Assembly: GCA_051294375.1 (NCBI GenBank)
Contig: CM119268.1
Span: 16,497,074 to 16,561,073, forward strand
From: Paraspadella gotoi
Lineage: Eukaryota > Animalia > Chaetognatha
Direction of reading: 5' to 3'
DNA length: 64,000 nt
In this document: piece by piece, positions 1 through 58,100 of the stretch
Layout of the letters: every line of letters starts with the position of its first letter
Numbering within the stretch: the stretch's first letter is position 1
The notes under the pieces: generated by a model
Databases searched by the model: none
What the model saw: only the letters and a program-made list of their open reading frames with translations
What the model was told of the DNA's origin: nothing
Program-made: the position numbers and the translations under genes

Positions 1-758
1 TAACAGAAATGAGGATCTTTTGCAAAAGAGAGCTCTAATTAAAAAACAATCAACAATTCCGCATAGAGAAGCCTCCTACCTTCTAAAAATAGAAATATGA
101 AGATCACACCTGAAAGATAAGGCTGTAATCTTATACATTCAGATCGTAAACAAGGGATTCCTTCCAAAAAAAAGAACTAAAGCCCGAAGAGAAAGTTCTC
201 ACAAATGCAGCTTAACGATATATTTCTGATGAAACATTTAACGAAAATTGGTTTCTTGGTTCACGCGAGATGTCGCAGCTGCGGAACTTTTCTCAGGATA
301 GATTTTGTCACCAGAGAACGAAGGGGCTCCTCTTTACTAAAAGGAAAAAAGGGGAAAAATAGGTCGGAAAAGAGGAGGAGAAAGCAGAGGCTAACAAGGA
401 GGAAAAAGAGAGAGAGCGAGAGCGAGAGCATTAAAGAATAGAAAGTTGTGTATTCCTTTCGCTCGTTTAATAAAAAAAAAAAAAAAAATAGCTGGTGGAA
501 TTATAAGTTTGTAAGAGGAAGTCGTTAATCGTAAAAGGCAAAAATGTGGGAAAAAAGGGGTGGATTTTTGATGGGCTTTCTACGATTACTCCACAACCTG
601 AGGTCCCATTAAAGCGAAACTTGAGATTCACAATATTGAAGTCATTTCACATCTTGCTATATAAAAATTGAATGAGAAAACCACTGGCCTCTTTCGATAT
701 AGCGACTTCCTACGAGTCATAAAATCGGCCGGGATTTCCTTAAATTTGTCTCTTTAAC

Positions 759-9288: not shown

Positions 9289-9397
9289 CATTTAGATCGA
9301 TAGATGAATAGATGGAACTGTTGATGAAGATTTATTGGGAGGAAGACGTTGGCTCCGTGAAAATAATATAATAAAAAATTTTTAAAAAATATATAAT

Positions 9398-9436
9398 AAA
9401 CCACCAAAGCCTGTCCAAAGTCAGGGGCAAGATAGC
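9398..9436 (+). repeat. 3' half of the twister-ribozyme repeat, starting at the predicted cleavage site
   Basis: AAACCACCAAAGCCTGTCCAAAGTCAGGGGCAAGATAGC is identical to the reverse complement of 27556-27594. Confidence 0.85.
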
Positions 9437-14535: not shown

Positions 14536-15476
14536 TGCAAAAAAAATGATGTCCGTCCGTCCGTCCGTCCATCCGCCCGTCTCACCTTAGCAAAAAGCTC
14601 CGATAACTCGTGATTGTGTGGTTGGATTGGAATGAAATTTTGTGTGCGGGTAGGAAAGTGTGTGATGAAACTGGATATAAAGTTTCCATGGAATCGTGCG
14701 AGTGGAAATGAGTTTAAATTGAAAAAACATAAGTCGCATTTACTATAATATTTTTACTTATTTTAACCAATATTACTCTAATTAATCATAATTGGATGGA
14801 TAGATTGAGTTGAAATTTTGTGTGTGGGTAGGAAAGTGTGTGACGAGGCTTGATATAAAGTTTCGGTGAAAACGTGCGAGTGGAAATGAGTTTAAATTAA
14901 AAAAAATATGAGTCACATTTTCTTGAATCTTTTTACTTATTTTAACCCATAATTACTCGAATTAATCATAATTGAATTAATAGATTAAGATGAAATTTTG
15001 TGTTCGGGTAGGAAAAAGTGTGAGGAAGCTAGATATTAAGTTTTGACGGAATTGTGCCAGTAAAAATGAGTTTAAATGGAAAAAACATAAGTCACCTTTA
15101 CTTGAATCTTTATTATTTATGATTACTAATAAATGTTTTAATTAATGAATTAATTAATTAATGTGAAAAAATGATGCAATTTAAAAAAATTATGCAAGTT
15201 GAAAAAATTATGCAAGTTGAAATAATTAAGCAATTTAAAAAAAGATGCAAGTTAAAAAAATTATGCAAGTTGAAAAAATGATGCGAATTGTAAAAATGAT
15301 GCAAATTGAAAAAATGATATGAGTTGAAAAAATGATGTGAGTGGAAAAAATGATGCGAGTTGAAAAAATGATGCGAGTTCAAAAAAATTTAAAAAAATAT
15401 TGTGATTTATCATCTGATTTGCTGATTACCGCTTAATTATCGGAGGCAGATCCGACATTATTTGCTCAAACTTGTT
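14536..15476 (+). mobile_element. DINE-1/Helentron-associated (HINE)-like non-autonomous element; 5' end in gap
   Basis: Contains a (GTCC)n microsatellite, about three ~180-bp internal tandem units, an 18-bp minisatellite (15165-15380), and the 3' subterminal repeat GCAGATCCGAC followed by ATTATTTGCTCAAACTTGTTTT. The same architecture recurs in several copies. Confidence 0.65.
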
Positions 15477-16450
15477 TTAGTCGGGTCTACTTACCAACAG
15501 ATCCCGAATCTATAATTCACTTTGTCGGTCCGTCGGTCCGCCCCCTCAATCTTGTCGGGTATTCACTTATATCATTAGCGGTAGCCGATCAAATTCAAAT
15601 TTTAATGGGAACAGCATTAAACAAATCCATTATTGGTATTAGTTATTGTGTTAAAATATTTTTTTTCAAAAATGTTCCGAACCATGAGTAATTCGCTAAT
15701 CAAAATTAATATATTGCTATATAATGTCAAAAATATTTTTTGATCTTTTACTCTTTTTTTTTAATTGATTCTGATAGAGCTCAAAAAGTTAAGCAAAAAA
15801 TATAATTACAACGTTTCAAAATTTTGATGTTTTGTTTCTGAAAATTAACAAAAACTGTTAAAATCATCGAAATAATGTAATGATGAGGATGATTTTTTCA
15901 GGTGTTTCCCAGTTTTAACCCACTTTCCATCAAAATATTGAAAAAGAATTATACTTTGTGTATACAACTTTTTATAAGCTATCTGAATCTGCTTTTCAAA
16001 ATAAAAATTAAAAAATTTTTTTTTACATTTTCTATTTATAAATAAATATTTAAAAAATAATTACTAGTGCTTCTAGCCATTTAAAAAAAAAATTTGGTCC
16101 ATTGAAAGTTTTCTCAGAAATGTATGAAGTTTCATTTGGGAAGGTTCCCAAATCAAACTTCTGACCCACCCCATTGACAAAGTTCGGCTCTAATATCATG
16201 TCAGAACATCGAATTATGATAAATTATGCAAAAAAAAAAAACGATGTCCGTCTGTCCGTCCGTCCCACGTTAGCAAAAAAGCCAATTACTCGTGATTGGA
16301 TAGATGGATTGAAATAAAATTTTGTGTAAGGTAGGAAGTGTGTGATTGAAGCTGGAAATCAAGTTTGGATGGAATCGTTTGAGTGGAAATGATTTTAATT
16401 GAAAAAATCTTAAAAGCATAAGGATCGTCGCAATCGCATAAGAAAATCTG
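15477..16450 (+). mobile_element. HINE-like element, 5' part, interrupted by a nested MITE
   Basis: Starts TTTAGTCGGGTCTACT..CAGATCCCGA.TCTATAAT like the other copies and resumes after the MITE at ATATCATGTCAGAACATCG. The 3' limit is approximate. Confidence 0.6.
15576..16192. mobile_element. MITE with 7-bp TSD; copy 2, nested in a HINE-like element
   Basis: Reverse-complement homologue of 759-1371, with TSD ATATCAT at 15569-15575 and 16193-16199. The equivalent empty site is visible in the copy at ~19765-19790. Confidence 0.85.
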
Positions 16451-16549
16451 GATTGACGACAAATTTTGATACTAAAAAAAATAAAATTTGAGAAAAGAAA
16501 ATTAATTTATAAACAGAAAGAAAAAATTATATTTGCGATTGTCAATTAA

Positions 16550-16774
16550 AAACAGGTTTGAGCAAACAATGTCGGATCTGCCTACGATAATTAATTTATT
16601 AATCGATTAATTAATTTATAATTAATTTTAATATGTAATAATTAATTTTAAATTTATATTCAACTAATCATCATCGATGTCCTTAAAATTGGGTTAGGAC
16701 AGTTATTAAATATGTTTTGTTTTACATTTTATCAAAAACAAACAAATATCCTCTATTTTATTTTATTTCTCCTT

Positions 16775-16811
<37 letters not shown>

Positions 16812-17815
16812 ATTTTATGCAATTGCGACGATCTTTAGCTTTTAGATTTTTTTAACTTGCATCATTTTCTTCACATTAATTAATTAATTAATTAATTAAT
16901 TAAAACATTTATTAGTAATCATTAATATTAAAGATTCAAGTAAATGTGACTTATGTTTTTTCCATCTAACTCATTTCCACACTCATAATTCCGTCAAAAC
17001 TTTATATAATTATTATATATTAATAAATATTTAAAAGCTTAAGTGCAACAACCCAATAGCTAAATCAAAAAGTTACATTGAAAATCGATTTAGTATAAAA
17101 AAGGAAAAAAAATTTTTAAAAAAACTAGAAGTTATAAAAAGTGTTCAATTTTGGCCCGCCTTACTAGTAATTAGGCCGAAACAGGTTGAAAACGAGAAAG
17201 TTCTCTCAAATAAATAATGGTTATAGCGACTATTAAATAATATGAAAATGAAAATAATTTTTAAAATTTTGCTTATCAGTTTTTTTATAGATTCTGATAG
17301 AGCTTTAAAAGTTAGATAAAGGTTTTAATACAACTTTTTTTTTGTTTTATTATGAAAAATTTAAAAAAATAAAATTCACCAATAATGATGATGATGAATA
17401 TTTTTAAGGTTTTTCTCTATTTTTACCAATTTATTGTCAAAATTTGAAAATTATAGTACTAACTTTCATTTAACTTTTTAAGGCTCTTCAAGAACCCGTT
17501 CTTAAAAAAAATCAATTTTTTAAATTTTTTTTGTCATTTGTTTATTATTAATAAATTATTTAAACAACCCAATGAACTAATTCAAAAAGTTACATTGAAA
17601 ATCGATAGTAATAGAAGGAAAAAAGAAATTTTTTTGAGAGAACGAGAAGTTATAAAAAGTGTTCAATTTTGGCCCCGCCTTACTAGATATATTGCATGTG
17701 ATTAAACAATGTTATCGGAATAATAATTTTATAAATTTTATGTATTTTGTAAGTATTTTAAGTATTTTTATTCAGTGATAAAATAACTTTTTTATTCGCT
17801 AATTTTTATCTCGGA

Positions 17816-17880
<65 letters not shown>

Positions 17881-17991
17881 ATCTTTGCAATTGCAACGAT
17901 CCTCATGCTCATTTTTTCTGCTCTCTCTCTCTCTCTCTCTCTCTCTTTGCAATTGCGACGATCCTTATGCTCATTTTTCTGCTTTTCTCTC

Positions 17992-18025
<34 letters not shown>

Positions 18026-19872
18026 ATAAATAATAAAGCTCAAGTAAAGTTGACTCATATTTTTTTCATTTAAACTCATTTCCACTCGTACGTTTCCACG
18101 AAACTTTATATCAAGCATCGTTAACCATTTTTCTACCCACACAAAAAAATTTGAACTCAATCTATCCATCCAATTATGATTAATTAGAGTACTTATTGGT
18201 TAAATAAGTAAAAATATTTTAGTAAATGCGACTTATGTTTTTCCTCTTAAACTCACACGATTCCGTCGAAACTTTATATCCAGCATTATCACACACTCTC
18301 CACCCACACAAAATTTCATTCCAATCCAACCAGCCAATCACGAGTTATTGAGCTTTTTGCTAAGGTGGGACGGATGGACGATTGATTGACTGATTAATTA
18401 ATTATTGATTAAATAATTGACTAATTGATTAATTAACGGATTAATTTATTTGATTTATTAATACATCCTGCTAATACAATTTATATAAAAGAAAAAAGAA
18501 TCATAATCAATTAGTGAAAACAGGTTTTTTTTTCCATTTAAACTCATTTCCACTCAAAAGATTCCATCGAAACTTGGTTTCCTGTTCATCACACACTTTT
18601 CTACTCACATACAAAATTCCAGGTCAATCGATAATTAAGTGGTAATAAGCTAACTTGGTCAACTTGCATAATTTATCAACTTGCATAATTTGGTCAACTG
18701 ACATAATTTGGTTTAACTGACATAATTTGGTCTACTGACATAATTTGGTCAACTGACATAATTTGGTCAACTGATATAATTTGTCAATTAAGATAATTTG
18801 GTCAACCGGCATAATTTGGTCAACTGGCATAATTTGGTCAACTGGCATAATTTGGTCAACAGGCATCAATTTGGTCAACAGGCATAATTTGGTCAACTTG
18901 CAGAACTTGATCAACTTGCAGAATTTGTCAACTGGCATAATTTGGTCAACTTTAAGAATTTGGTCAACTGGCATTTTTTGTCAATTGGCATAATTTGGTC
19001 AATCAATCAATCAATCAATCAATTAATCAATAAGAGAGAGATAGAGAGAGAGAAACTTTAAAAAATTCAAATAAATGGTGTCTTTTGATTTTCTAATTTG
19101 AACTATATCCACTCTACGATTCCATCAAAAAATTTATATCCAGCTTTATCACATACTTTCCTACCCACACACAAAATTCAATTTCGATTTATCTATCCAA
19201 TTTTTAATAAACATAATAATTATGAGTAAATTTAAGTAAAAATACTTCAAGTAAATATGACTTTTGTTTTTTCATTTTAACTCATTTCCACTCGCACGAT
19301 TCCATCGAAACTTTATATCCAGCTCAATCACACAGTTTTCTACCAATCATACAAAATTTCAAGTCAATTGCCCTATCCACTCATGAGCAATTGGCGTTCA
19401 AATAGTGAAATATATTTTTTTGTTTTTTCCATTTAAACCAATTTCACATCGCACGATTCCCTCGAAACTTCATATCCATCCCAATCACACAGTTTCCTAC
19501 CCACACACAAATTTCATACCAATCCATCCATCCAATCACGAGTAATTGGAGTTTTTTGCTAAGGTGGGACGGACGGACGGACGGACGGACGGACGACGGA
19601 CGGACGGACAGTCGGACGGACGACGGACGGACGGACGGACGGACGGACGGACGGACGGACGGACGGACGGACAGAACAGACAGACAGACAGAAGACAGAC
19701 AGACAGACAGACAGACGGACGACGGACGGACATGTTTTTTTTTCATAATTTATCATAATTCGATGTTCTGACATGATTATAGTGTGTGCCCGACAATATT
19801 GAGGGGGCGGACCGACGGATCGACAAAGTGAATTATAGAGTCGGGATCTGCTGATAAGCAGATCCGACTAAA
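16550..19872 (-). mobile_element. Nested or adjacent minus-strand HINE-like copies with other MITE fragments inserted
   Basis: The 3'-end motif (reverse) AACAGGTTTGAGCAAACAATGTCGGATCTGC is at ~16552 and the 5' hairpin AGTCGGGATCTGCT-GATA-AGCAGATCCGACTAAAA at ~19839-19873. Also present: (GGAC/AGAC)n at 19567-19730, an 18-bp minisatellite at 18650-19000, and repeated ends TTGGCC(C)CGCCTTACTA at ~17150 and ~17670. Confidence 0.6.
18650..19000. repeat. 18-bp minisatellite (ATAATTTGGTCAACTGGC)n
   Basis: Roughly 19 visible units; reverse complement of the array at 24765-25470. Confidence 0.9.
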
Positions 19873-21639
19873 AATAATAAGTAAAATAAAATAAAATAAA
19901 GGAAAATTAAAGTTACAGTTTCTGAAAAAGGGGAAAAAAACACAATGAAATTTTTTTTTTTGTTATTGTCTTTTTCATTTTCAAAAAATAAACTGATCTG
20001 TAGACGCAGCCCCTGAGAAAAAAAAATGAAATAAAAACCCGATGTTGCGATAGAGAAAGAGAGAAAAAGGCAGCAGCAGAAGCAGTAGGAGAAAGAGAGA
20101 AAAAGAGAGAGCACCTGCAGAGCCAGATGCAGACTCAAAAGTCAGCAGCAGAAGCAGCAGGAGAAAAGAGAGAGGGAGAAAGACATATAATTAAAAGATA
20201 AAAGAGAGAGAAAAAGAAATATAAAAATAAAAGAGAGAATTTGTTGTTTTGGATAAAACGTAAACAAAATATATTCATTAACTGTCCTGACTCAATTTTA
20301 AGGACATTGATGATGAGAAGCTGTATATAAATTTTCAGCTTCATCCACCCAAATTTAATCATAAAAAAGGCGATCTATAATTTGGAACGCCGACGCGCGA
20401 CGACGACGACGCCGACGCGACGACGACGCCGACGACGACGACGCCGACGACGACGACAGCACAGCAATTTCGATTTCAATTTCGATTGCGACGATAAAAA
20501 CAAAAAAAATATATTTCACTATTTTAACACCAATTACTCATGAGTGGATGGGGCGATTGACTTGAAATTTGTATTTGGGTAGAAAAGTGTGTGATTAAAC
20601 TGGAAATCAAGTTTCGATGGAATCGTTTGAGTGGAAAGGAGTTTAAATGGAAAAAACAAAGACCCTGTTTCACTAGTTGATTATGCTTCTAAATATAAAT
20701 GCAAGATGTATTAATTAATCAATTAATTAATCAGTTAATTAATCAATATAGTAATTAATTAATTCAATAATTCTAAGCTCTCTTTAAAATTATCATTTGT
20801 ACTCGAGTTACAGAGCTTGCAGTCTCAGAAATTCTAGACGAATGCTACTGTAATTTTTATGATACACAAACTCAATACTCATGCATCTTACATTTTTTTC
20901 TGGCAGGAGCTTCCTCCATCGATATTCGATGTACCCTTCTTCATTGTCAGCAAGGACACTAGAAAGCTTGGGACGGATCTCAATTAACTATTGGTGCCTG
21001 AATTACCCTTAACACAAGACAAGATCAAGAGTCTTTACTCACGAAGGTAAGAATCTAAGTCTACATACGTCTTCCAGAGATTGAGAGTCGCGCCCACTTC
21101 CGACTGTTTGAACTAGAAAGCGGTTGCCACTCTAGACATAAAAAGCGCTTCAGGAGGACCTCGCCTGTCTTTTTTTTGAAGCTCTTTGATGACGGTCTCT
21201 CTTTCTTTAGTCAAGAGTAGCTCGTTTTCAATAATTATTGCGAGCATCCCTCATTCTTTAACTTTTTTAGGCTGTTCCTGTACAATACGGGTTTTACTCA
21301 ACACCTACTGATCATGGCTGTGAAATTTAATGTAAGTAAAAAACTTGTGAGGAATTTCCAACATTTTTAATTTTAATTGAAACAAATTCAAAGAAGCCCC
21401 CTTGCTGCGGCTCCTGAAAACTCAAACACACACAAAAATCGTATCTTTTGCTACTTTCATCGTCTTTTTATTCGTCACTCCTTTTGTCGTTGCTCTCACC
21501 GTCGCAACTGCTTTCCTCCATCGTTCAAATTATCGTCGTCATTTCTGTCGATCCCGATCCGACGGAAGCTTAATTCTTCTTCTCCCTGAGTCACTCAGCA
21601 TGCAGAATTTATTGTTACAAAAGTAGCGTCGGGAAAAAT

Positions 21640-21745
21640 GGCCCTAATCTCTTACCCTAATCCCAACCCTAATCCCTAGCCCCTAACCCCAACCCCTAAT
21701 ATCTATCCTCTAAATTAACCTTATCCCTAACAGAAACCCTAAACA
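21640..21745 (+). repeat. Degenerate (CCCTAA)n telomere-like tract, interstitial
   Basis: Multiple CCCTAA/CCCCTAA variants, flanked by a duplicated TCATCGTTCAAATTATCGTCGTC motif (21518, 21752). Confidence 0.6.
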
Positions 21746-22848
21746 ATTAATTCATCGTTCAAATTATCGTTCAAATTATCGTCGTCGTATTTGTTGATCC
21801 AGCCAGAAAGAGCGAAAGAGATTCGCTGCTCCGTCATACGGCAAGGGGGCATCGATGTTTGAAAAGGCCCAACTTTAACTTAAGTTTAAGCTTAACCATA
21901 AAATTATAAAATATCATTTTAAATGCTTACCGACTGTCACGAATCATTGGTAACTTATCCTCTTAGTTTTAGGTAAGCACGTCTCTTTTATATCTTTGGA
22001 TAAGGTACAATCATAAGGACTAACCAATCAGAGAGCGACGTTTAAAATACTTGATCAATCAGATACTTCGTAAGCAACAAAAAATACGAATTCAATAATA
22101 AAAAGGGCATCAAACAACAGAGACTATCTCGTAACAAATAAAAATTTAACAATAGGGATCCTCTATCCTGCAAACTTTTATGTTGAACATTTAACAAAGA
22201 ACAACCGTGACCCATAAATATTACGTATTATCAATATTTGATCCACTAACAGACTTTATACGACCTCTTCATGGTTTACTCCCTCGACATATTGAACTAC
22301 GAATCGTCAATCAAGGTAAAAACTTCAATTATTTATGACGATATCGTTTAATACCATTGGTAAAAACATTATTTTAAGACGTACATGGAAGCTATGGAAT
22401 GCCGCATCATATTTGCTCAGCTTTTGGATGTGAAAGTCATAATCTCATTTAGGGAAGATTCACTGTTCTACGATTTTTTCTAATTCACTGATTGAAATTC
22501 TTATCAAATAAACAAGTGAGTTTTATAATTTTAATTTTTCTCTCGATTGATTCAAATCGCATCAATTTTTTTTATTCAGATGCCATCCGACCTTCACGAG
22601 TCTCCATCTTCTCTTTATCAGTTTGAGATTATGTCGATGAGGAGTCAGAATCTCGCTAAAAACTGCGGGGTTTTCCTTTCATTCACAATGGCGGTATTAG
22701 TGGCTCCATCCATAGGTCGATTTTCGGCCCTAGTGCTTCTTCTTCACAAGGATTTTCTTCAATATATATTTTTACTTTGGAACCAACATCATGCGTTTTC
22801 ATATTTACGAGAGTTTCTCGTGGTTGGCAAAAAAAGGTGAATCAAATT

Positions 22849-23998
22849 TTTAGCAGATCCCGACTCTATAATCCACTTGGTCGGTCCGTCTGTCCGACCC
22901 CTCAATCTTTTCGGTCATTCATTTAAATAAAGTCAGAACATCGAATTATGCCCCCCAAAAAAATGATGTCCGTCCGTTCGTCCGTCCGTCTGTATGTCCG
23001 TCCGTTCCACCTTAGCAAAAAACTCCAATTACTGGTGATTGGATTGATGAATTTGAATGAAATTTTGTGTGTGGTTAGGAAAGTTTGGTTGAGCTCGATA
23101 TAAAGTTTCGATGGAATCTCGCAAGTAGAAATGAGTTTAAATGGAAAAAACATACGTCACATTTACTTGAATCTTTTTACTAATTTTAAGCCATAATTAC
23201 TCAAATTATTTGTAATTGCATAGATAGATTGAGATAAAATTTTGTACGTTGGTAGGAAAATGTGTGATTGAGCAGGATATAAAGCTTAGAAGGAATGAAG
23301 GAGTGGAAATGAGTTTGCGTGGAAAAAACCAAAGTCAAATTGACTTGAATTTGTATTATTTATTCTTATTCATAAATGTTTTAATTAATTAATTAAATAA
23401 TTAAAGTAAAAAATGGAGCAATTTAAAAAAATGATGCGAGCTAAAAAAAATGAAGCAAGTTGAATTAATGATGCGAATTTAAAAAATTATGCAGGTTAAA
23501 AATATGATGTAGTTTAAAAAATTATGTAAGTGGAAAAAATGATGCAAGTTTAAAAAATGATGCAAGTTTAAAAAATGATGCAAGTTAAAAAATTATACAA
23601 GTTAAAAAAATAATAATAGTTAAAAAAACATTTTTGTACCATAGTAACAGTTCATTTTTGGGCATGATAAAATGAGAATTTCGATCGCGCTCTACCTCCG
23701 TTGGCTTCCCAAGACGCCAAGCTTTCGAAATCTGCCCATATTGATATAATTTGTATGGGCCTTGACTATGCAGTTTTGAATAGAAGTGAAATATAAAAGA
23801 ATCTTGATCAGAACTTCGATTCGAACGATGCGCAGCCCTAGTTTAATCCCTTGCAAGCGATTTACATGTATTGGCGCAGCCACTGTTTTGGTATGTCAGA
23901 TCACAATTTAAAACAATTATCATGATTTATCATCTGATTAGCTGATTACCGCTTAATTATCGTAGGAAGATCCGACATTGTTGGCTCAAACTTGTTTT
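22849..23998 (+). mobile_element. HINE-like element
   Basis: 5' AGCAGATCCCGACTCTATAAT, (GTCC)n, ~180-bp units, 18-bp minisatellite (23410-23610), and 3' AGATCCGACATTGTTGGCTCAAACTTGTTTT. Confidence 0.65.
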
Positions 23999-24012
23999 AC
24001 AAGTACTGGCAG

Positions 24013-25650
24013 TTTTTTAGTCGGATCTGCTTGTCAGCAGATTCCGACTCTATAATGCAATTTGTCGGTCTGTCGGTCCCAACCCAAAATCGTGTCGGTA
24101 AATAATTTTTATCAAATCAGAACATCAAATTGTGATAAAATTATGATTAGAGAATTGACAAAGTTTTTTGTTTGCAACAAATTTTATTTCAATTGAACAG
24201 AAATGTTTCGACTTGCTTTACAAGTCTTCATCAGCGTTTTGACAGTAGAAGGGAGGAGAGAGAGAGAGAGAGAGATACAACAGGGATAAATAAATAATAA
24301 ATGATACATTGTGTAATGTACAACTACAGGTAATTAATTTTTATCAAATCAGAACATCAAATTATGATAGAATTATGCAAAAAAAATAATTTCCTTCCGT
24401 CTGTCCGTCCCCCCTTAGCATTAAACTCCAATTATTCGTGATTGGATGGATGGATTGCAATGAAATTTTGTGTGGGTAGGAAAGTGTGGGATTGAGCTCG
24501 ATTTAAAGTTTCGATAGAATCGTGCAAGTGGAAATGCGTTTAAATGGAAAAAGCAAAAGTCATATTTAACTAAAGTATTTTTACTTATATTTACTCATAA
24601 TTATTATATTTATTAAAAATTGGATAGATAAATTGATATGAAATTGTGTGTGTGGGTAGGAAAGTATGTGATTAAGCTGGATAAACAGTTTAAATTAGAA
24701 AACCGAAAGACGCATTTATTTGAATTTTTAAGTGTTTCTTTCTTTATCTCTCTCTGATTGATTGATTGACCAAATTATGCCAGGTGACCAAATTATGCCA
24801 GTTGACCAAATTATTCAAGTGACCAAATTCTGCTAGTTGACCAAATTATACCTATGGATAAAATTATGCCAGTTGACCATATTATCCATGTTGACCAAGA
24901 TTTATGTGGTTGACCAAATTATTGCCAATTGGACAAAATTATGCCAGTGACCAAATAATGCCAGTTAACCAAATAATGCCAGCATTTGAGCAAATTAAGT
25001 CAGTTGACCAAAATTATGTCTGAGTTGACCAAAATTATCCAGTTGACAAATTAAGCAGTTGACCAAATTATGCCAGTTGGACAAATGTTTGCCATTTGAC
25101 CAAATTATTGCCTAGTGATCAAATTATGCCAGTTGACCACACTTTTGCAAGTATGAACAAATTATGCAAGTGTAAAAATTATATCAAGTTGACCAAATTA
25201 TCCAGTGACCACAAATATGCATTTGACCAAATTATGCACAGTAGACCATATTATCGCAGTTAACCAAATTATAGCTGATGACAAAATTATGACCAGCTCA
25301 CCAAAATTATATCAGTTGACCAAATTATGCCAGTTGACCAAATTATGCAAGTGATTAAATTATTGCAAGATGATCAAATAGAGCAAGTTGACCAAAATTC
25401 ATTGCAAATTACCCAATTATGCAAGTTGACCAAATTATACAAATTGACCAAATTTATGCGCAAGTTGGTAATTGGCGCAGCTACTGGTAAATGTATTGAT
25501 TAGATAACTCTCTGATTTATAGATTTTTTCATAATGTATTAAGAATTCTGTTATGATTTGTTATGAATCTGTTAAGATCCATGATTAGATTATTACCCGC
25601 TTATTTATCGTAGGGAAATCACACATTGGTTTGATCAAACTTATTTTTTT
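24013..25650 (+). mobile_element. HINE-like element with a hammerhead-bearing insert and a long 18-bp minisatellite
   Basis: 5' hairpin AGTCGGATCTGCT-TGTC-AGCAGATTCCGACT after a T-run, minisatellite (TTGACCAAATTATGCCAG)n at 24765-25470, and a degenerate 3' end ...GATCAAACTTATTTT. Confidence 0.6.
24196..24238 (-). ncRNA. Minimal type-I hammerhead ribozyme (Penelope-type), stem III mutated
   Basis: Minus strand reads AACG CTGATGA A GACTTG taaag CAAGTC GAAAC ATTTC TGTT. Stem II is 6 bp. The palindromic ACATGT has changed to ACATTT. Confidence 0.7.
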
Positions 25651-27203: not shown

Positions 27204-27243
27204 ACAGACATGTTTCGACTCGTTATGGAGTCTTCATCAGCGC
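27204..27243 (-). ncRNA. Minimal type-I hammerhead ribozyme (Penelope-type), core intact
   Basis: Minus strand reads GCG CTGATGA A GACTC cataac GAGTC GAAAC AT GTC TGT. It has the conserved CUGAUGA and GAAA boxes, a 5-bp stem II, palindromic stem III ACAUGU and a GUC cleavage triplet. Confidence 0.8.
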
Positions 27244-27479
27244 AATTGACATTTTTTGAAAATTTGAGACAAAAAAGAACCATTAAGCTTAATATTTATC
27301 TATGTTGTACATTGTACATTTTAAATAGGGAAACTGGCAACGCGAACAATAAAAAATGTTTATCATTATCAATATCAAATCAAAAGAGCACCTCTTTGAT
27401 TTCAAACGTCGTCGTCATGATGGCAGCAGTGATTGATAAGTAAAAAGAAGAGCAACGGTGTATTCAATTTCGTTATAAG

Positions 27480-27805
27480 ATTGGTACAACTAATATAAAC
27501 TATTTATGAAATTGGTACAACCAATATAAAAATTATCCATTCATTTAATAAATAGGCTATCTTGCCCCTGACTTTGGACAGGCTTTGGTGGTTTAAGGCC
27601 TCCATCACTCTTACAAGATAATGACATAACAGGTCCCTGCAAGCTTTCAATCAAGACTCTTTCACAGTCTCGTTTATTCACTCCCAGAGTACCTGGCTTC
27701 CCTATCAATGAAGTGGTATAATATAAAATAGAAAATAGTGAAAAAAGTAATTTAGCAAATTTTCATAACAATGATCCTGTCATTTAATAAATATCTTTCC
27801 CCTGA
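27480..27805 (-). mobile_element. Twister-ribozyme-containing short repeat (retrozyme-like), ~234-nt monomer plus terminal redundancy
   Basis: The direct repeat TCAGGGG(C/A)AAGATA..TATTTATTAAATGA recurs at 27805 and 27571 on the minus strand. The body is shared with 33925-34222. Confidence 0.75.
27558..27620 (-). ncRNA. Circularly permuted (P5-type) twister ribozyme
   Basis: Minus strand reads TATCTTGT AAGA GT GA TGG AGGCCT TAA AC C AC C AAA G CCTG T CCA AA GT CAGG G GCAAGATA. This maps onto the twister layout (UAA, GA, P4 loop U-NNN-AA-GN) with P4 CCUG/CAGG, T1 CCA/UGG, T2 C-AC/GU-G and P5 UAUCUUGU/GCAAGAUA. Confidence 0.75.
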
Positions 27806-28195
27806 TTAAGACGGGCTATAATAATAACAAGTGGCCACTCTACTTGCATTCCAAATCGTAACTTCTGGATTCTTATACAGACAAAATAAAATTTCCTCAT
27901 CTAAAACCCTTTCAAAGGCTATTATCATATTGCTGCAGCTGCTATATTTTCGTAGAATGATGGAAGAGAGATATTTTCGAGGCATTTTCGAACTCACTGT
28001 ACCAAGTTTAAATATGTTGCCCGACTTTATTCGGATCCGCCTGTTGTTACTAGTATTATATACATAAGAAATGTCCGTCTTCCTGTGATTGGTGATGGGT
28101 CCACTTACTATTACAGTTTTCAATGATTTAAATAAAACAATTTTGCTTCATGTAATATTATCCAAGTTATTTTAAAAATTATACAATTCCGTTAG

Positions 28196-42588
<14,393 letters not shown>

Positions 42589-47500: not shown

Positions 47501-50500
47501 ACTTCATTTCATTTTTCACGTTGGTGATTTCTTGAACCGCCTCGTTCAGCTTCTTCTTGGCATCTTCAGACTCTTGCTGCAGTTGACGGACCTCAGTTTG
47601 GCCTCGTCTATGCTCTTTTTCAATTCAATCTTTTCTGTGTCATTTGCGNNNNNNNNNNNNNNNNNNNNNNNNNCTTATAATAATTAATATAGAGGAATAT
47701 GTGTATCACCCTTGTATAAGTCATGAGAAACCACCAATTGTACCCCTATGAAGAACATCCCAGTAGGAATTAGCGACAATTGACGTCGTTGCTCGCGACG
47801 AATTGGTAATTAAACTTGTAATGGGATTCGTAGCGTAACGAAAACCGCAAAACTTTCTGCGGCTGTAATATAATCGAAAGAGAAAAAACAGCAATGGTTG
47901 TAAATGACCGCTAGAATTTGGATGACTCAATTCTCACTTACTACCTTATTGCTATGAAATATTTAAATTTTAAGGTACAACTGCTCTACTTCGGTCCTCA
48001 TGGCAGAATTTTTTAAAAATTGATTCGGCTTTATTAGAATTAGCCAAAAAGTATGATTGTACAAACAAAAAGCGCCTTAAACATGCCGCTACCCACCTTC
48101 GGAAGCTTAATCCAAATTCGCTGTGGAACGAAGCTGTCTTCATCGAAATAAGCCGTTCTCCATTCGGCGTCTCTTTCGCCAAGAAACGCTTTGCTTGGTC
48201 CCAACGTTGGAATAAACTGGTCGTGGCTCCGTAGCTCGCCCCATCGTAAGAACAATCGTTTCATGCGAGCCTCTGCCGCCGGTAACGTATTGGTTCAATT
48301 TATTCATATATTAAAAAATAATAATTAGTTCAAATAAAGACTTAATTCCCCGCTGTTTCCATGATTCCCACGTCGTCCTTCAACCTCGAAACCTTGTGGT
48401 CCAATTTTTCTGTTGTTTCTTCAGTTCATTTCAGTTCGTCCCGAAGTTTTTCATTTTCATTTCCAAGTTTCTCTTCATTTCTTTGTCAGCTGCCGCTTTT
48501 TTCAAAGCTTCATCGATCTTCGTCTTTAATTGATCGTTCTCGGTTTTCCAAGGAAATCTTTGCCTCTGTAATTATAATTTGCCATTGTAACTTTAGTTTA
48601 AAGATAGAACAAACGCAATCTTTTGAGTTTAAAGTTTATAACTGCATAGTGCATACCTGTTGTTTGTTTTAGTTGCTTCTCTCCGCCGTTTGTAAGTCCG
48701 TTTCTAATCATTTAATAGATTTTTGTAAATGTTCCGTTTGTTTCGTAGAGTTTCTTGTTCCTTTTCGCGGATTTTTAATTCGTTTTTCACTTTTGACATT
48801 TTTCCTTCGAGGATCTCATTAGCTATTCGTACGATCTTAAAAATAAAGACGATAATTTGAACATAATTAACTACCAAAATATTTGAATACCTTTTTAAAA
48901 TTTTATAAACAAGATTAACTTGGAAAGAATCTAATTAATATTAAAATTCATGTTTCCACAAAAGCCTCTAAAATATTTGTTGCATTATATAAACTAAAAA
49001 AATAAGATTACTTACTTCATTTCATTTTTCACGTTGGTGATTTCTTGAACCGCCTCGTTCAGCTTTCTTCTTGGCATCTTCGACCCTGCGTTGACGGACT
49101 CCACGTTTGGCCTCGTCTATGCTCTTTTTCACTTCTGTGCATTGCTGCGATTCTCTTGTCAACTTTCATTTTCATTTTCCAGAGTCTCCTTCTCTGGACA
49201 CCTCTTCTATTCTTGAGTATTATAATTTCTCCTTAATTTGATATAGTAATCGTTACACATTCTTCGAGTTGCGCAAGCTCCCTGGTCAAATTTTGATTGG
49301 CTTGATCAATGCTTGCCAAACTGCTTGGTCGCATCCGTGATTTTTCTTGCCCCGTTGTCTTGTTCTCGTCAGAGCTTCGCGGACTGTGATCGATTCGTTG
49401 AGTCGCTTTCTCGAGATCGACTGAAAATAACAGTTTTATTAAATATCTTATCGGCCGCTTTGTACAATGTGTATCAACACTCTGGACAATTGTACATCTT
49501 TCGGTAACGATTAAATCCCCATACGATTCCTCCGAGCGGGGCCGCTCACTTTGCATCTGGAAGGTAACTAACACAGCACAACATGCTTTGGCAACGTAGA
49601 GGGAATCCGACCTGGAACTTTGGGGGGGTTTAAGACCCTCCAAGGAAGGATGTCCCAGAGATCGAACCCAGCATCGGAACAACTAATTGAAGGGCTTTGT
49701 TTCTATTACCCTTTATTTATCTTCTTTTTCATATATTTTTAATCATTTCTTTCTTCAAATTGGCTTTTACCTATTTTCTCTTTATCTTCTGTTGACCCAA
49801 TGGGTAAATCCGATATACCTTCAAGACTTCGTCCAACTTTTTCGAATTAGTTTCGCTTTCTCCAAATTTTCTTCGTATCCGTCGCTACGGCATCATGAAC
49901 TTTCTTTTTCGAAGGATCTGAAAGTAAGTTTCATGAAAAAAAATAAAAATTTTCGCCTTTGAATTTTCAAGGCGACAGCATTTTCCCGTTTTTTCGCTAA
50001 CTTGATCGATGCCAGAATGGCAGCTTTTCGATCTCTTTCGACAGACAGACCCGAGTAGCATCCCCTCGCCGGGACCTTCGGGCGATACCAGCCTTGACGC
50101 GGGACGCTGTGGCAGAGATGCCAAAGACCCAGAAAGGACACAAAGAATTGAGCCGCGTGCATCGCCATTTCGTTGAGAGAAATTTTCTGTTTTTTCCTCT
50201 GAAATCTTTTCCATTCCTTCGACCCCTCAGCTGACTGATTCTCACGTCTTTGTAATTTTTTTTTAAAAAAAAATGCCAGAACCGGATGATAAGATACAAG
50301 TTTGTTAAATTGTCAAATTGTTTGATTAATAGTCCTCAAAAAGCTCAATCTAATTTAATCTATTTCTACGTATTACAGTTAGTAATTATATTTAATTTTT
50401 CTTTCAGAATTATTATTCTTAGCTTTTTGTTTTAGCCACAAGCGGAAGGGGGGCGACGATATCTGGCGACTAGAGTTTCGTCTATACAGCCCTCCATAAA

Positions 50501-50518
50501 TCCGGACGCGAAAAGAGG

Positions 50519-50577
<59 letters not shown>

Positions 50578-52312
50578 TTTTCTCCTGCAACTTTTCATTT
50601 TCCTTTTCCAGAGTCTCTTTCTTTTCCGTGACTATCTCTGTCTTATTCTTGAGTATTTTAATATTCTCCTTATACTTTGATATAGTATCGTTACACATTC
50701 TTTCGAGTTGCGCAAGCTCCCTGGTCAAATTTTGATTGGCTTGATCCAAGCTTGCCAACTGCTTGGTCGCATCCGTGATTTCTTGCCCGAGTTCTTTGTT
50801 TTCTCGTTGCAGAGCTTCGCGGACTGTGATCGATTCGTTGAGTCGCTTCTCGAGATCGACTGAAAATAACAGTTTTATAAATATCTTACGGCCGCTTGTA
50901 CAATGTGTATCAACATCTGGACAATTTGTACATCTTTCGGTAACGATTAAATCCCCATACGATTTCCGAGCCGGGGCCGCTCACTTTTGCATCTGGATCG
51001 GTAACTAACACTAGCACAATCATGCTTTGGCAACGTAGAGGGAATCCGACTGGAACTTTGGGGGGGGGGTTTAAGACCCTCCAAGGAAGGATTCCCAGAG
51101 ATCGAACCCCAGCTCGGAACAACTAATTGAAGGGCTTTTGTTTTTTTGCTATTACCCTTTATTTATCTTTTTTTTCATATATTTTTTATCATTTCTTTCT
51201 TCAAATTGGCTTTTACCTATTTTCTCTTTATCTTCTGTTGACCCAATGGGTAAATCCGATATAACCTTCAAGACTTCGTCCAACTTTTTCGAATTAGTTT
51301 TCGCTTTCTCCAAAATTTTCTTCGTATCGTCGCTACGGCATCCATGACTTTCTTTTCGAAGGATCNNNNNNNNNNNNNNNNNNNNNNNNNNNNNNNNNNN
51401 NNNNNNNNNNNNNNNNNNNNNNNNNNNNNNNNNNNNNNNNNNNNNNNNNNNNNNNNNNNNNNNNNNNNNNNNNNNNNNNNNNNNNNNNNNNNNNNNNNNN
51501 NNNNNNNNNNNNNNNNNNNNNNNNNNNNNNNNNNNNNNNNNNNNNNNNNNNNNNNNNNNNNNNNNNNNNNNNNNNNNNNNNNNNNNNNNNNNNNNNNNNN
51601 NNNNNNNNNNNNNNNNNNNNNNNNNNNNNNNNNNNNNNNNNNNNNNNNNNNNNNNNNNNNNNNNNNNNNNNNNNNNNNNNNNNNNNNNNNNNNNNNNNNN
51701 NNNNNNNNNNNNNNNNNNNNNNNNNNNNNNNNNNNNNNNNNNNNNNNNNNNNNNNNNNNNNNNNNNNNNNNNNNNNNNNNNNNNNNNNNNNNNNNNNNNN
51801 NNNNNNNNNNNNNNNNNNNNNNNNNNNNNNNNNNNNNNNNNNNNNNNNNNNNNNNNNNNNNNNNNNNNNNNNNNNNNNNNNNNNNNNNNNNNNNNNNNNN
51901 NNNNNNNNNNNNNNNNNNNNNNNNNNNNNNNNNNNNNNNNNNNNNNNNNNNNNNNNNNNNNNNNNNNNNNNNNNNNNNNNNNNNNNNNNNNNNNNNNNNN
52001 NNNNNNNNNNNNNNNNNNNNNNNNNNNNNNNNNNNNNNNNNNNNNNNNNNNNNNNNNNNNNNNNNNTGAAAGTAAGTTTCATGAAAAAAAATAAAAATTT
52101 TCGCCTTGAAATTTTCAAGGCGACAGCATTTTCCGTTTTTTCGCTAACTTGATCGATGCCAGAATGCAGCTTTTCGATCTCCTTCGACAGACAGACCGAG
52201 TAGCATCCCTCGCGGGACCTTCGGGCGAATACCAGCCTTGACGCGGGACGCTGTGGCAGAGATGCCAAAGACCCAGAAAGGACACAAAGAATTGAGCCGC
52301 GTGCATCGCCAT
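44578..52312 (-). CDS. Putative secreted coiled-coil protein with a C-terminal F5/8C (discoidin)-like domain; 2-3 overlapping, indel-ridden copies
   Basis: Signal-peptide-like start MAMHAAQFFVSFLGLWHLCHS (ATG at 50168 and 52312). Heptad-rich exons include LTRELAQLE.., EKLRDELNELKKQQKNLDHKVSRLKDD. C-terminal exons read AFLGERDAEWRT..PQRIWIKLPK/PQKVLRFSLRY..QFVASND..WDVL/..YRCYGF..LSDIKLWRYWS* (stop 44578). Copies differ mainly by homopolymer indels. Confidence 0.55.
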
Positions 52313-52654
52313 TTCGTTGAGAGAAATTTCTGTTTTTTCCTCTGAAACTTTTCCATTCCTTCGACCCTCAGCTGACTGATTCTCAGTCTTTGTAATTTTT
52401 TTTTTAAAAAAATTGCCAGAACCGGATGATAAGATACAAGTTTGTTAAATTGTCAAATGTTTGATTAATAGTCCTCAAAAAGCTCAATCTAATTCTATCT
52501 ATTTCTACGTATTAACAGTTAGTAATATATTAATTTTTTCTTTCAGAATTATTATTCTTAGCTTTGTTTTAGCCACAGCGGGAAGGGGGGCGACGATATC
52601 TGGCGACTAGAGTTTCGTCGTATCAGCCTCCATAAATCCCGGACGGAAAAGAGG

Positions 52655-55162: not shown

Positions 55163-58100
55163 TAGAGAGGAAGTGACATTATAAGCTGAAGGCGGCGACA
55201 GGGTAAGTAAACAACCGAGGAAAGTCAAAGCCGAAAGTACAAATCCGATTTGTGGGGGAAACGGCAGAGAACGAGAGAGGGAACTGGATCACTCTTCAAC
55301 TACCTTCAAGAAACAAAATCAAACTCCTTATGGACTATTTGTTTATTGTTATTGCCTGCCTTTTCTCTGCATAATCTACATATTTGATATGTTAATTATT
55401 ATCATCCAACGTGTATCTTATGTCAATAAAACTCTCCTATTTCTCACTTAATAAACCACGCCTGCTTCCTTCGTTGATTGGATGGCCAACCATTTTTCCC
55501 CAGTAGAGGTTAAATATTATTGCGATGCACATATTTTATCTTGTTTTTAATTTGTTTTTATTCTGTTTTAACTTGTTTTTAAATTATTTTTAATTAGTTT
55601 TTAATACATTTATTTTCGTGCTGTTCTTAATTGATACAAATAACCTCACTTACCTTCGAATTCGTGGCCGAGGGAAAATGAGTACAAACCAGAATAATTT
55701 ATTATATACTTATTTTCTATTATATTATATATGCCTATTATATTATATTTTTTTAAATCATATTTTTTTTAAATATACTCAGGTGATGCAGGGTTTTGGT
55801 CTGTTCTAAGATAAACATTCAAAATATACCTTTAAAAATATAAGATAAGCAGACAAACGCGAGGATCACCATTTCGGTGATGGCTCTGCCTATACCTGGA
55901 TATTGGGATTAAAGAGCGAAATCCATGAGAGGGTATAGGTTCCCAACTGATGACCTTCCCATTGTAAAACATAAAGAAAAAAATATTTAAAAAAGAAATA
56001 ATTAAAAAATAGGATAAAGAAAAAATACAATTTTCATTAAAGTATTTTAAAAATAGACCTTTCCCGATATGTATCCCTATCAGAACATACAATTCTACAT
56101 GTAGTCTTATCCCTATTGGAAAAAAAATTGGTCCCCCTCAAAAAATTATCCGCATTCCCACCCCTTTCTGCTTCAGCTCTTGATATTATGATTTTTCATT
56201 AATGACTTTCTAGGACAGATAGTAATCTAACCTTGTGTTGTAAAGATGCTCCTCTATTTCCAGAAGACAACACTGACTTCCCTTCCCAAATTGAATTATT
56301 ATATAAATAAAACATTTTTTAAAAAGAAAGCAATATATGTTTGAGTTAAATAATATAGATTAAATACTAATCCTTCATAAAAATATTAAAATATTAATTA
56401 GAAAAATAGAAAATAGTGAAACAAGTAATTTGCAAAAATTTTCATACATAACCTTTTTAAGACTGAATAAACAGTATATATTAAATTATTTTAATGCAAG
56501 TGACAAATACTTCCAAAAAAGGCTATCTTTAACTGTTATTAACTGTTTATCTTTAAAAAAATTTTCGATAAAAAATTTTATTTTTCGATTTTTAAATTAA
56601 AAATGCCGAAAAATACTGGAAAGTAACCTCGACAAAGTTTTTTTTCCATCATGTAGTGATCTCGCAAATGTTACTTTCAAAGAAATTAATTGGAAAATGA
56701 TGTAATAGTAATTGATTGATTGAGTGTAATAGTAATTGATTGATATAATAGTAACGATTGATGTAATAGTAATTGATATAATAATAATTGATAATTAATG
56801 GCGATGATAACCAATTATTGATGCGATGATAACCAAATGATCTGATGCATGATACCAAATGTGGATGCGATAACAAATGATTATGCGATGAAAAAACCAA
56901 ATGATTGATGCGATGATAACCAAATATTGATGCGAATGATAACCAAATAGATGGATGGGATGATAACGCAAAATAATGGATGCGAATGATAGTCATTTCA
57001 TTGATGCATAATCAGTAATAAAAGGAGATAGACCCCGACGCGGGTCTATTAACCCTGCGTATTTCACCTTCTCTCATCTCCTCCGCAGGGTTACGGGGCC
57101 GCGTTCACGAGGTTCAGTTCACCTTTCTCTCTTGCTCCAAGTTTCCTCCCTTTTTTTACCCTCATGTAAATTCTTGTTGGTATAGATTTTCCTGCCGTCA
57201 ATATATTATTTTTCCCGCTTCGCCGTGCTACTTCTGGTTAGGATACCTTTTTCAGAAGTGACGCCGCAATTGTGTTACTTGAACCCACAGAATAAACCAA
57301 ATAAGTGCTCCACGGCGACTGTATTTAAAAACCGGAAGAAAACAAAGTAAAACAAAAACGAAAAAATGAAAGGAAAAAACCACTGAAAAACTTTCCAATT
57401 TGTTTTTAAATTAAAAAATTAGATAATGATAATCATTCATTGATGCGATGATAGTCCATTCATTTTATGCGATGATAGTCATTCATTGATACGATGATAA
57501 GTCCCATTCATCGCTGACTCACGATATGTTATTATGACACTCCGGAATCATCTGATCGAGATGATAAGCTCTGATAGGAATATGATGGCGAAGATAATTA
57601 GTTGCAGTTCATGTTGAATGGCGAGAGATAGTCAGTTTATAGACGCGATGAATGGTCATATGTCATTCAATCGTAAATAAATGACTATAAACTCATATAT
57701 GCGTAGAGGAAGAGAGAGAGAGAGAGATGTATGGAAGAGAAAAGAGAGAATATATTCTCTCAAAAAGAATAGTGTTCTGCGAAGAAAGTGTTACTATTAC
57801 TAAGAAGGAAAAATTAATGAAAAAACTCTGTAAAAAAAAAAGATGCAAAGATGAAACAAGGAGAAAGTGACGAGTGAGGGTAATGAGGAGTAGAAGAAGA
57901 GAGAGAAAGGAGAGGAGACGCACGAAAGAAAAGGGTAGGATGTCATCGGAGTTGAGAAGAGTTGAGAGACAAAGAGAGAGGAAAAGAAAAAGAGAAAGAA
58001 GGAAGAAGAAGAGAGGAATAGAGATTAGAATAAGAGACAAGAATATGAGTATAGGAAACCAATAATGTGAGATGAAGATGATAACCGAGTGAATTGGATA

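Follow-up and report, generated by a model that had tools for sequence, protein, structure and literature searches.

The minus strand at one locus of the chaetognath Paraspadella gotoi raises the question of whether a self-cleaving RNA of the twister class is carried there by a mobile repeat and, if so, how such a repeat would spread. A first-pass annotation of a stretch of 64,000 nucleotides (hereafter the window) had read this place as a circularly permuted twister within a non-autonomous retroelement. The minus-strand sequence that it gave for 27620-27558 agrees exactly with the letters of the window. The coordinates of all features of the motif and of its repeat are collected in Table 1.

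The twister motif and its unusual P1

The best Rfam match in the window is Twister-P5 (RF02684) at 27567-27609 on the minus strand, which by E-value ranks first of the ten Rfam matches. The model is spanned over its entire length (1-58 of 58), in the strand order that has its ends in P5. At 25.8 bits the match lies 11.8 bits below the gathering score of 37.6; no match anywhere in the window attains the gathering score of its family. Searching a 701-nt stretch gives E=0.0036; searching the whole window with 4227 families gives E=0.32. The conserved GA (G27606-A27605) and UAA (U27595-A27594-A27593), which together with the loop AA had been described as kept, and the letters of L4 align in place to the model. 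We take G27606 to be the predicted general base and A27594 the predicted general acid, following established twister chemistry. Compared with the Rfam consensus, P4, T1 and T2 each have one pair in which both bases are exchanged, and all pairs are Watson-Crick, which bears out the coupled changes noted in the first-pass annotation. The closing stem P5 was likewise seen there, at 8 bp; with the closing U.G it has 9 bp. The circularly permuted reading thus stands by its best model, its pseudoknots, P4 and P5 and by both catalytic bases, G and A, while the score remains below the cut-off of a model that scores neither T1, T2 nor P5.

A descriptor that holds only the topology and the catalytic letters finds the motif and one other match in the window, which is AU-rich and has a P5 of 3 bp. 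In 51.0 Mb of simulated sequence the same descriptor gave 117 matches, two of them with a P5 of at least 8 bp, or about 0.005 per window; this rate is somewhat favourable because the descriptor was loosened after a stricter first version, which required P2 to abut T2, had missed the motif.

The first-pass annotation had seen the main structural weakness in P2. This helix has indeed only 2 bp, but the larger departure is the loopless, palindromic P1. Its two arms (27601-27599 and 27598-27596) abut, and 0 of the 14 loop-side model positions are filled. Therefore, a hairpin can have at most one base pair and a loop of four nucleotides, at +5.6 kcal/mol. As a duplex of two molecules the AGGCCU palindrome reaches -9.1 kcal/mol, and -11.7 kcal/mol with the flanking G.U pairs. 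The P1 linker measures 14-16 nt in three type-P5 examples from phages, compared to 6 nt in copy A. In the nested fold of lowest energy T1 is kept, but the P1 remnant takes the 5' strand of P4 as its partner. With pseudoknots left unscored, this fold is calculated at -14.1 kcal/mol, and the active fold, counting its nested part, at -9.9 kcal/mol.

How severe is this departure? In the available part of a study on a mini-twister, P1 is dispensable for cleavage (PMC5408937). Hence the monomer may cut, and the missing P1 lowers the standing of the motif as a canonical member and not the expectation that it works like a twister. McKinley et al. (PMC11662667), in the portion available, describe defects of P1, P2 and P4 as tolerated and those of the pseudoknots or catalytic bases as harmful, in type-P1 forms only; the departures of the copy A motif are solely of the kinds tolerated in these type-P1 forms. 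On sequence and structure, the reading as a type-P5 twister is well supported. The motif is a non-canonical type-P5 twister by sequence, one that lacks a regular P1 and stays under the gathering cut-off. We are confident that it is a twister by descent, and it is predicted, with good though lesser probability, to be able to cut itself.

The palindrome would allow for a second mode of action. Parts of two studies (PMC7229834, PMC4209133) describe how the axolotl hammerhead HHR_Amex1, with a one-pair helix and a palindromic tetraloop, cuts efficiently only as a dimer, and gating by dimerization is therefore a testable alternative for the copy A twister. We regard it as rather doubtful, and still worth formulating, that the repeat is a circRNA-forming animal retrozyme with a copy-number-gated twister in place of the hammerhead. 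In the monomer the P1 palindrome would then lie on P4 and keep the circle uncut, while tandem palindromes would pair with each other and give a strand-swapped "double twister", the counterpart of the double hammerhead of newt and axolotl. A natural twister with a loopless, palindromic P1 makes a direct comparison of monomer and dimer possible. It also bears on the question, raised in the available text of PMC7229834, of how metazoan ribozyme circles avoid cutting themselves.

Natural type-P5 twisters from phages share some of these peculiarities. A looser pattern matched at least 116 loci in viral contigs, 3 of which passed the P4 filter, and an Rfam run on 23 of these at least 116 loci identified type-P5 twisters in 6 (L026 at 283-333(+), L051, L094, L005, L014 and L033). 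The T2 swap of copy A recurs in L026 and L094, and its one-base-short P2 in L051 and L094; the latter scores 37.4 bits with two non-standard P2 pairs. L026 carries a second, partial Twister-P5 match at 1-41(+), about 290 nt upstream and in the same orientation. These are phage ribozymes and not relatives of the repeat. A search for relatives by an exact 20-mer gave no match in metagenomes, and one by a gapped pattern gave none in prokaryote genomes and none in viral contigs. The three metagenome matches of the gapped pattern were judged to be chance on inspection and were rejected as relatives.

Table 1. Position, strand and basis of the motif elements in copy A and of the repeat copies in the window
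Feature	Position	Strand	Basis
Type-P5 twister-like ribozyme, copy A	27557..27621	-	Rfam, topology descriptor, fold
P5, 9 bp including closing U.G	27621-27613/27565-27557	-	pair probability 0.84 in fold
P2, 2 bp and A.C mismatch	27608-27607/27591-27592	-	model alignment
Conserved GA of L1	27605..27606	-	aligned to model GA
Pseudoknot T1, 3 Watson-Crick pairs	27604-27602/27577-27575	-	sequence, model alignment, descriptor
P1 remnant, palindrome AGGCCU without loop	27596..27601	-	model alignment, energies, no variant at or above 3%
Predicted cut between U27595 and A27594	27594..27595	-	aligned to model UAA
Pseudoknot T2, 2 Watson-Crick pairs	27589-27588/27572-27571	-	model alignment, descriptor
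P4, 4 bp, and loop L4	27582-27579/27570-27567	-	model alignment, descriptor
Copy A main body	27503..27722	-	fold, contig depth, loose ends
Copy A basal stem	27722-27701/27556-27532	-	fold
Copy A long hairpin	27695-27630	-	fold
Copy A 3' hairpin	27525-27511	-	fold
Family 3' end	27503-27506	-	contig depth and loose ends
Diverged upstream piece and degenerate spacer	27723..27817	-	27817-27765 is 76-78% identical to main copy
Second copy of 3'-terminal 30 nt, 82%	27470..27502	-	directly after copy A 3' end
Copy B, partial tandem in intron, decayed ribozyme	33925..34253	+	period 278 nt
Copy B, 3' piece (5'-truncated)	33925-34000	+	
Copy B, spacer, about 66 nt	34001-34065	+	
Copy B, main copy	34066-34253	+	
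Copy C, 40-nt fragment, 100% identical to copy A	9397..9436	+	predicted cut (within 1 nt) to just past P5
Copy D, old 3'-end fragment	39825..39866	+	83% over 42 nt, E=2e-5

A repeat family with a conserved ribozyme core

The motif is embedded in a non-coding repeat unit that measures roughly 220-280 nt and has a GC content of 0.37-0.38. The first-pass annotation had placed the repeat at three or more places of the window, in agreement with the 32-nt core, which occurs at three places versus 0 expected. It had also described monomers of 234-280 nt with terminal redundancy. Of this, the head-to-tail period of 278 nt in copy B (33925 to 34203) holds and is the only clean one in the window, whereas the 234-nt unit of copy A is not clean and copy C shows no redundancy. 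The upstream piece of copy A is diverged and family contigs hardly follow it; the 234-nt monomer can therefore be no more than an older or decayed partner. In the ribozyme of copy B the catalytic G is gone, as is one of the T2 pairs. A stretch of 45 nt at 56403-56446(-) is 91% identical to the degenerate spacer of copy A, with no twister nearby; it is possibly an older subfamily or another repeat that was used as a target.

The twister strand of copy A folds better than shuffles (z -2.61, 3/200), with 8 G.U among 59 pairs, and the opposite strand gives z -0.94. Folded as DNA, copy A reaches z -1.73 and -0.39, and the decayed unit of copy B, folded as a circle, z -0.71.

The window around these copies has small introns and many microsatellites, and exons with Pfam matches to ferritin, DUF2452 and Pecanex_C. 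The named relatives of the ferritin come from a rotifer, a mollusc and an arthropod at about 60% identity, and closer ones exist. A pecanex-like gene lies at 28196-29125(-), with Pecanex_C at 28453-28671, and copy A follows in sense about 470 nt past 28196-28270, its apparent last exon by our reading. Copy A contains an AATAAA at 27675-27680(-), about 80 nt upstream of the predicted cut. Copy B sits in an intron of a gene at 33244-34460(+), whose exons we take to belong to the Mpv17/PMP22 family by their look; a Pfam search with one of these exons gave no match. Elsewhere in the window, 14550-25470 is dense in repeats of about 180 nt in both orientations and in 18-nt tandem arrays, possibly MITE- or Helentron-like. 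The segments 759-1371 and 15576-16192 form an inverted pair of about 600 nt, 77-94% alike and 14 kb apart. At 49233-52450(-) two or three near-duplicate pieces of a coiled-coil gene lie with an assembly gap between them, possibly a tandem duplication or a mis-assembly.

Beyond the window, the family was followed in sequencing contigs, which show it to be much larger than the first-pass annotation could have known from the window. Nine of 17 sequencing runs, all from one organism and three studies, contain at least half of the sampled window words; contigs from 4 of the 17 runs were aligned, with copy A as the sole reference. In the DNA run X1, 19,209 contigs align to copy A, and 1,338 in run X8. 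Summed depth in X1 is 3.1-3.3 million over the core versus 58-102 in the flanks; summed depth does not measure copy number, and the sample behind X1 may be that of the window itself. As a rough inference, the genome would hold thousands to tens of thousands of copies. Run X8 has a flank depth of 74 on the pecanex side, up to the element, versus 3 beyond it, and the pecanex-like gene may therefore end inside copy A. This unevenness looks like RNA, and our guess is that X8 is an RNA run. Nothing points to excess expression in X8: when its element depth is divided by the lower flank depth, the quotient is close to that of X1. Runs X12 and X13, from other organisms, contain one near-identical contig each. 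Horizontal transfer to these organisms was set aside, co-sampling or contamination being the simple reading.

The contigs also outline the ends of the element. Depth drops to flank level above 27766, and almost no contig follows the upstream piece (80% likeness). Loose ends pile up at 27503-27506, where the flanks are unlike each other and AT-rich, and also at 27722-27724, where the letters resemble the copy B spacer (both among the best 14 of 671 rows). Joints from the 3' end to an internal position have at least 6 different starts within 27554-27722 among the best 15 of 182 joints, of which one joins opposite strands. The twister strand thus has a 3' end that is fixed, some 90 nt beyond the predicted cut, and 5' starts that are ragged. 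A head-to-tail joint of 27722 to 27503 is seen in one contig each of X1 and X8 among the joints listed; the X1 contig may be copy B itself. A stretch of 13 nt is common to the X8 majority letters that follow the 3' end and to those that precede the 5' side (probability by chance 0.002 per pair and about 0.02 for the 8 rows listed together), an overlap that would give a unit near 265 nt.

Common variants among these contigs spare the ribozyme core. The variant table has 21 rows at 20 sites with a threshold of 3%. Sites 27555 and 27629, at which copy A itself is odd, were dropped, and the 18 sites kept include one at or above 3% only in X8 and X12 and one at which copy A carries an 11% minority. 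Not one of the 43 core sites carries such a variant, compared with 18 of the 163 others (one-sided Fisher p=0.012), in a test whose sites are non-independent and in which mapping may favour conserved stretches. When only G/C sites are counted, 0 of 23 core sites and 11 of 59 others are variable (p=0.02). The twister core is apparently under selection. The single common variant of P5 (27565, 19% of depth) turns the U.G into U-A, and the other variant inside the motif sits at the mismatched edge of P2. Of 13 variants at paired sites beyond the core, 9 leave the pairing intact, about as many as transitions would by themselves, and G-to-A variants affect 4 of 8 wobble versus 3 of 19 G-C sites, a difference that is not significant (p=0.09). 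Covariation among the copies, to which the first-pass annotation had looked for support, was not seen in the aligned contigs: the core is conserved and not covarying, with no two-sided change among variants that are not linkable within copies.

These data bear on the view that the twister likeness is due to chance, or that the motif is a dead relic and the repeat now spreads with no help from it. The whole-window E-value over all families, the score below cut-off and the missing covariation speak for this view, and the high copy number is not independent evidence for a twister because all copies descend from one sequence. Against it, the pseudoknots and P5 all hold even though the model does not score them, the descriptor rate is low, the core is conserved, and the strand of the motif is both the folded strand and the one that gives the truncation its polarity. 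We therefore consider chance or a relic to be highly improbable.

Probable retroposition and its alternatives

The repeat is a retroelement with high probability. A non-autonomous retroelement had been proposed in the first-pass annotation, and this proposal gains support from the fixed 3' end, the variable 5' starts and the lack of coding capacity. Its further step, to a retrozyme that may form circRNA, is plausible. Of the two strands it is the twister strand whose 3' end is fixed, and only this strand folds better than shuffles. The fixed 3' end, the 5' truncation, the partial tandems, the AT-rich targets and the lack of a clear target duplication all agree with insertion of the Penelope type. 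Penelope-like elements typically form partial tandems and reach very high copy numbers (PLEs; available part of PMC8557442). According to the portion available of PMC11167929, a PLE protein nicks AT-rich DNA, starts copying internally and takes uncut RNA in vitro, and animal retrozymes have been traced to PLEs in what is available of a 2026 survey (10.64898/2026.07.22.740005). We slightly favour, at a little better than even, a high-copy, non-coding, retrozyme-like element with a minimal type-P5 twister and a full Penelope-dependent cycle. In such a cycle tandem transcripts would be cut once per unit by the predicted twister, and an RtcB-type ligase would close the cut units, by analogy with the animal retrozymes in the accessible text of PMC7229834. 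The reverse transcriptase of a Penelope-like element would copy the repeat RNA into AT-rich targets.

Three fragments of Penelope-type minimal type I hammerheads lie at 27204-27243(-), 24197-24237(-) and 30102-30140(-), the first of them about 270 nt downstream of copy A. They have the core and a stem II of 4-5 bp, in two of them a short palindrome-like helix III, and then a word like a poly(A) signal and a related short tail; Rfam flags none of the three. Such elements have therefore been active in the window. Among the 149 of 313 non-simple reading frames of the window that were scanned, none has a reverse transcriptase or GIY-YIG domain. The 3' end of the repeat shows no likeness beyond shuffles to the 3' ends of the three fragments (p 0.82-0.88). 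No inverted 5' piece was found at copies A-D and no clear target-site duplication at copies A-C. Li et al. call a retrozyme active when a locus has two intact ribozymes (10.64898/2026.07.22.740005, in its available part), and no locus within the window has two. The repeat contains neither a tRNA-like part, which ruled out a tRNA-derived head, nor an exact match to the A or B box of Pol III. The idea that it includes a decayed hammerhead was dropped for want of a core match.

The part played by the cut is where a linear retroelement has to be weighed. Here an active twister would trim read-through RNA or set the 5' end, as in the twister variants of Schistosoma Perere-3/RTE, and a LINE or PLE would copy linear RNA with no circle involved. 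Copy C, which starts within 1 nt of the predicted cut, fits such an element and is a single case. The fixed 3' end and 5' truncation would also result from plain target-primed copying, a link between twisters and RTE elements is published (PMC8501958, PMC7761336), and a lizard PLE uses mainly uncut RNA as its template in vitro (PMC11167929), as far as the available portions of these papers go. However, the summed depth in X1 passes the predicted cut without a step (3.10, 3.12 and 2.97 million), and the cut position is absent from the best 14 of 671 rows of loose ends. Most copies thus appear to read through the site and would stem from uncut or re-sealed RNA. In addition, head-to-tail joins exist, and copies that start at the cut could not rebuild the ribozyme because the cut splits the type-P5 form. 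3' of the predicted cut the ratio of X8 to X1 depth amounts to 0.045-0.047, and 5' of it to 0.024-0.032; we do not count this as evidence because contigs show neither ends nor levels. Overall, the linear course is rather unlikely.

The position of the ribozyme near a fixed 3' end, the partial tandems and copy numbers in the tens of thousands are also known from autonomous PLEs such as Naiad, and the Naiad clade lacks canonical hammerheads (both in the available part of PMC8557442). The repeat could then be the pseudo-LTR or the 3' UTR of such an element, its copies truncated 3' ends, and the twister a replacement of the parent's hammerhead. In copy B, however, the sequence is back at the 3' end only 66 nt upstream and there is no ORF, and the loose ends in X8 suggest a similarly short join. 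Two twister motifs of 9-11 nt are absent from the supplementary file of PMC8557442, a weak test by exact match. We consider a PLE parent of this kind to be unlikely.

DNA elements of the DINE-1 type have imperfect subterminal inverted repeats, a 3' hairpin and AT-rich targets without duplication. Copy A shows inverted repeats of this imperfect kind (27722-27701/27556-27532), a hairpin lies immediately within its fixed end, and a target-site duplication was not found. It could thus be a non-autonomous, Helentron/DINE-1-like element in which the twister-like stretch is captured or inactive. The strand-specific fold with its G.U pairs and the poor DNA folds argue against this, as does the fact that the ribozyme core, and not the ends, is the best-conserved part, and we hold a DNA element to be very unlikely. 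We therefore keep to the non-coding, Penelope-dependent, retrozyme-like element as the preferred reading.

Comparison with known systems

Plant and animal retrozymes alike are described as elements with a hammerhead, and this ribozyme is the main argument for the descent of animal retrozymes from Penelope-like elements. If the preferred reading is true, an unrelated ribozyme occupies the same position, and the niche would need self-cleavage rather than a hammerhead. Pipelines that search for hammerheads only would miss such families, and the type-P5 twister would have a biological role in an animal genome. In mostly non-subscription literature we found neither a twister-based genomic retrozyme nor a dimeric natural twister. 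The available portions of PMC6765202, PMC10085705, PMC8782182 and PMC5680766 contain nothing on twister-based retrozymes, and the 2026 retrozyme survey, in its accessible part, covers hammerheads only and does not use the word twister (10.64898/2026.07.22.740005).

The closest likeness is to the animal non-LTR retrozymes (PMC7229834, 10.64898/2026.07.22.740005). In the portions of these sources at hand they are likewise non-coding, 150-450 nt long, with a GC content below 50% and a structured RNA, and they likewise have thousands of copies, monomers and head-to-tail forms and co-occurring Penelope-type hammerheads. The animal retrozymes described there carry a type I hammerhead, while the copy A repeat carries a type-P5 twister; copies A and B show no hammerhead core pattern, and the window has no Rfam hammerhead match. 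For animal retrozymes circles and cleavage are demonstrated, whereas for the present repeat both are predicted. With the Rfam family RF02684 copy A has in common the strand order, the catalytic G and A, T1, T2, P4 and L4. It differs in its P1, a loopless palindrome of 6 nt, in its sub-cut-off score and in its location in a eukaryotic repeat.

The published links between twisters and transposons concern the 5' end of autonomous Perere-3/RTE elements, as described in the available parts of PMC8501958 and PMC7761336. The T-variants of Perere-3/RTE (Liu et al. 2021, PMC8501958) likewise have a weak or missing P1, are linked to retroposition and occur in an invertebrate, to judge from the available text. 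Their ribozyme occupies the 5' terminus of an autonomous APE/RT element, and the target duplication lies beside the cut. In contrast, the copy A twister is circularly permuted and lies inside a non-coding unit, some 90 nt away from the 3' end; no ORF follows copy A and no duplication lies beside its cut. PLEs and their pseudo-LTRs (PMC4209133, PMC8557442, PMC11167929) resemble the repeat in that their ribozyme lies close to a 3' end that is fixed, and they share with it the partial tandems, the AT-rich targets and the unclear target duplications. As far as the available portions of these papers show, PLE ribozymes are hammerheads or absent, whereas the repeat has a twister, and neither an ORF nor a 5' inversion was found in it.

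Twisters also occur in viroid-like circles and in RNA viruses (10.1101/2022.07.19.500677, PMC13725137, in their accessible parts). The viroid-like circular RNAs of Lee et al. (10.1101/2022.07.19.500677) likewise carry twisters in small circles, among them one type-P5 case. In the portion of that study at hand these circles are RNA contigs for which no family of genomic repeats is shown, while copy A belongs to a dispersed repeat that is encoded in an animal genome.
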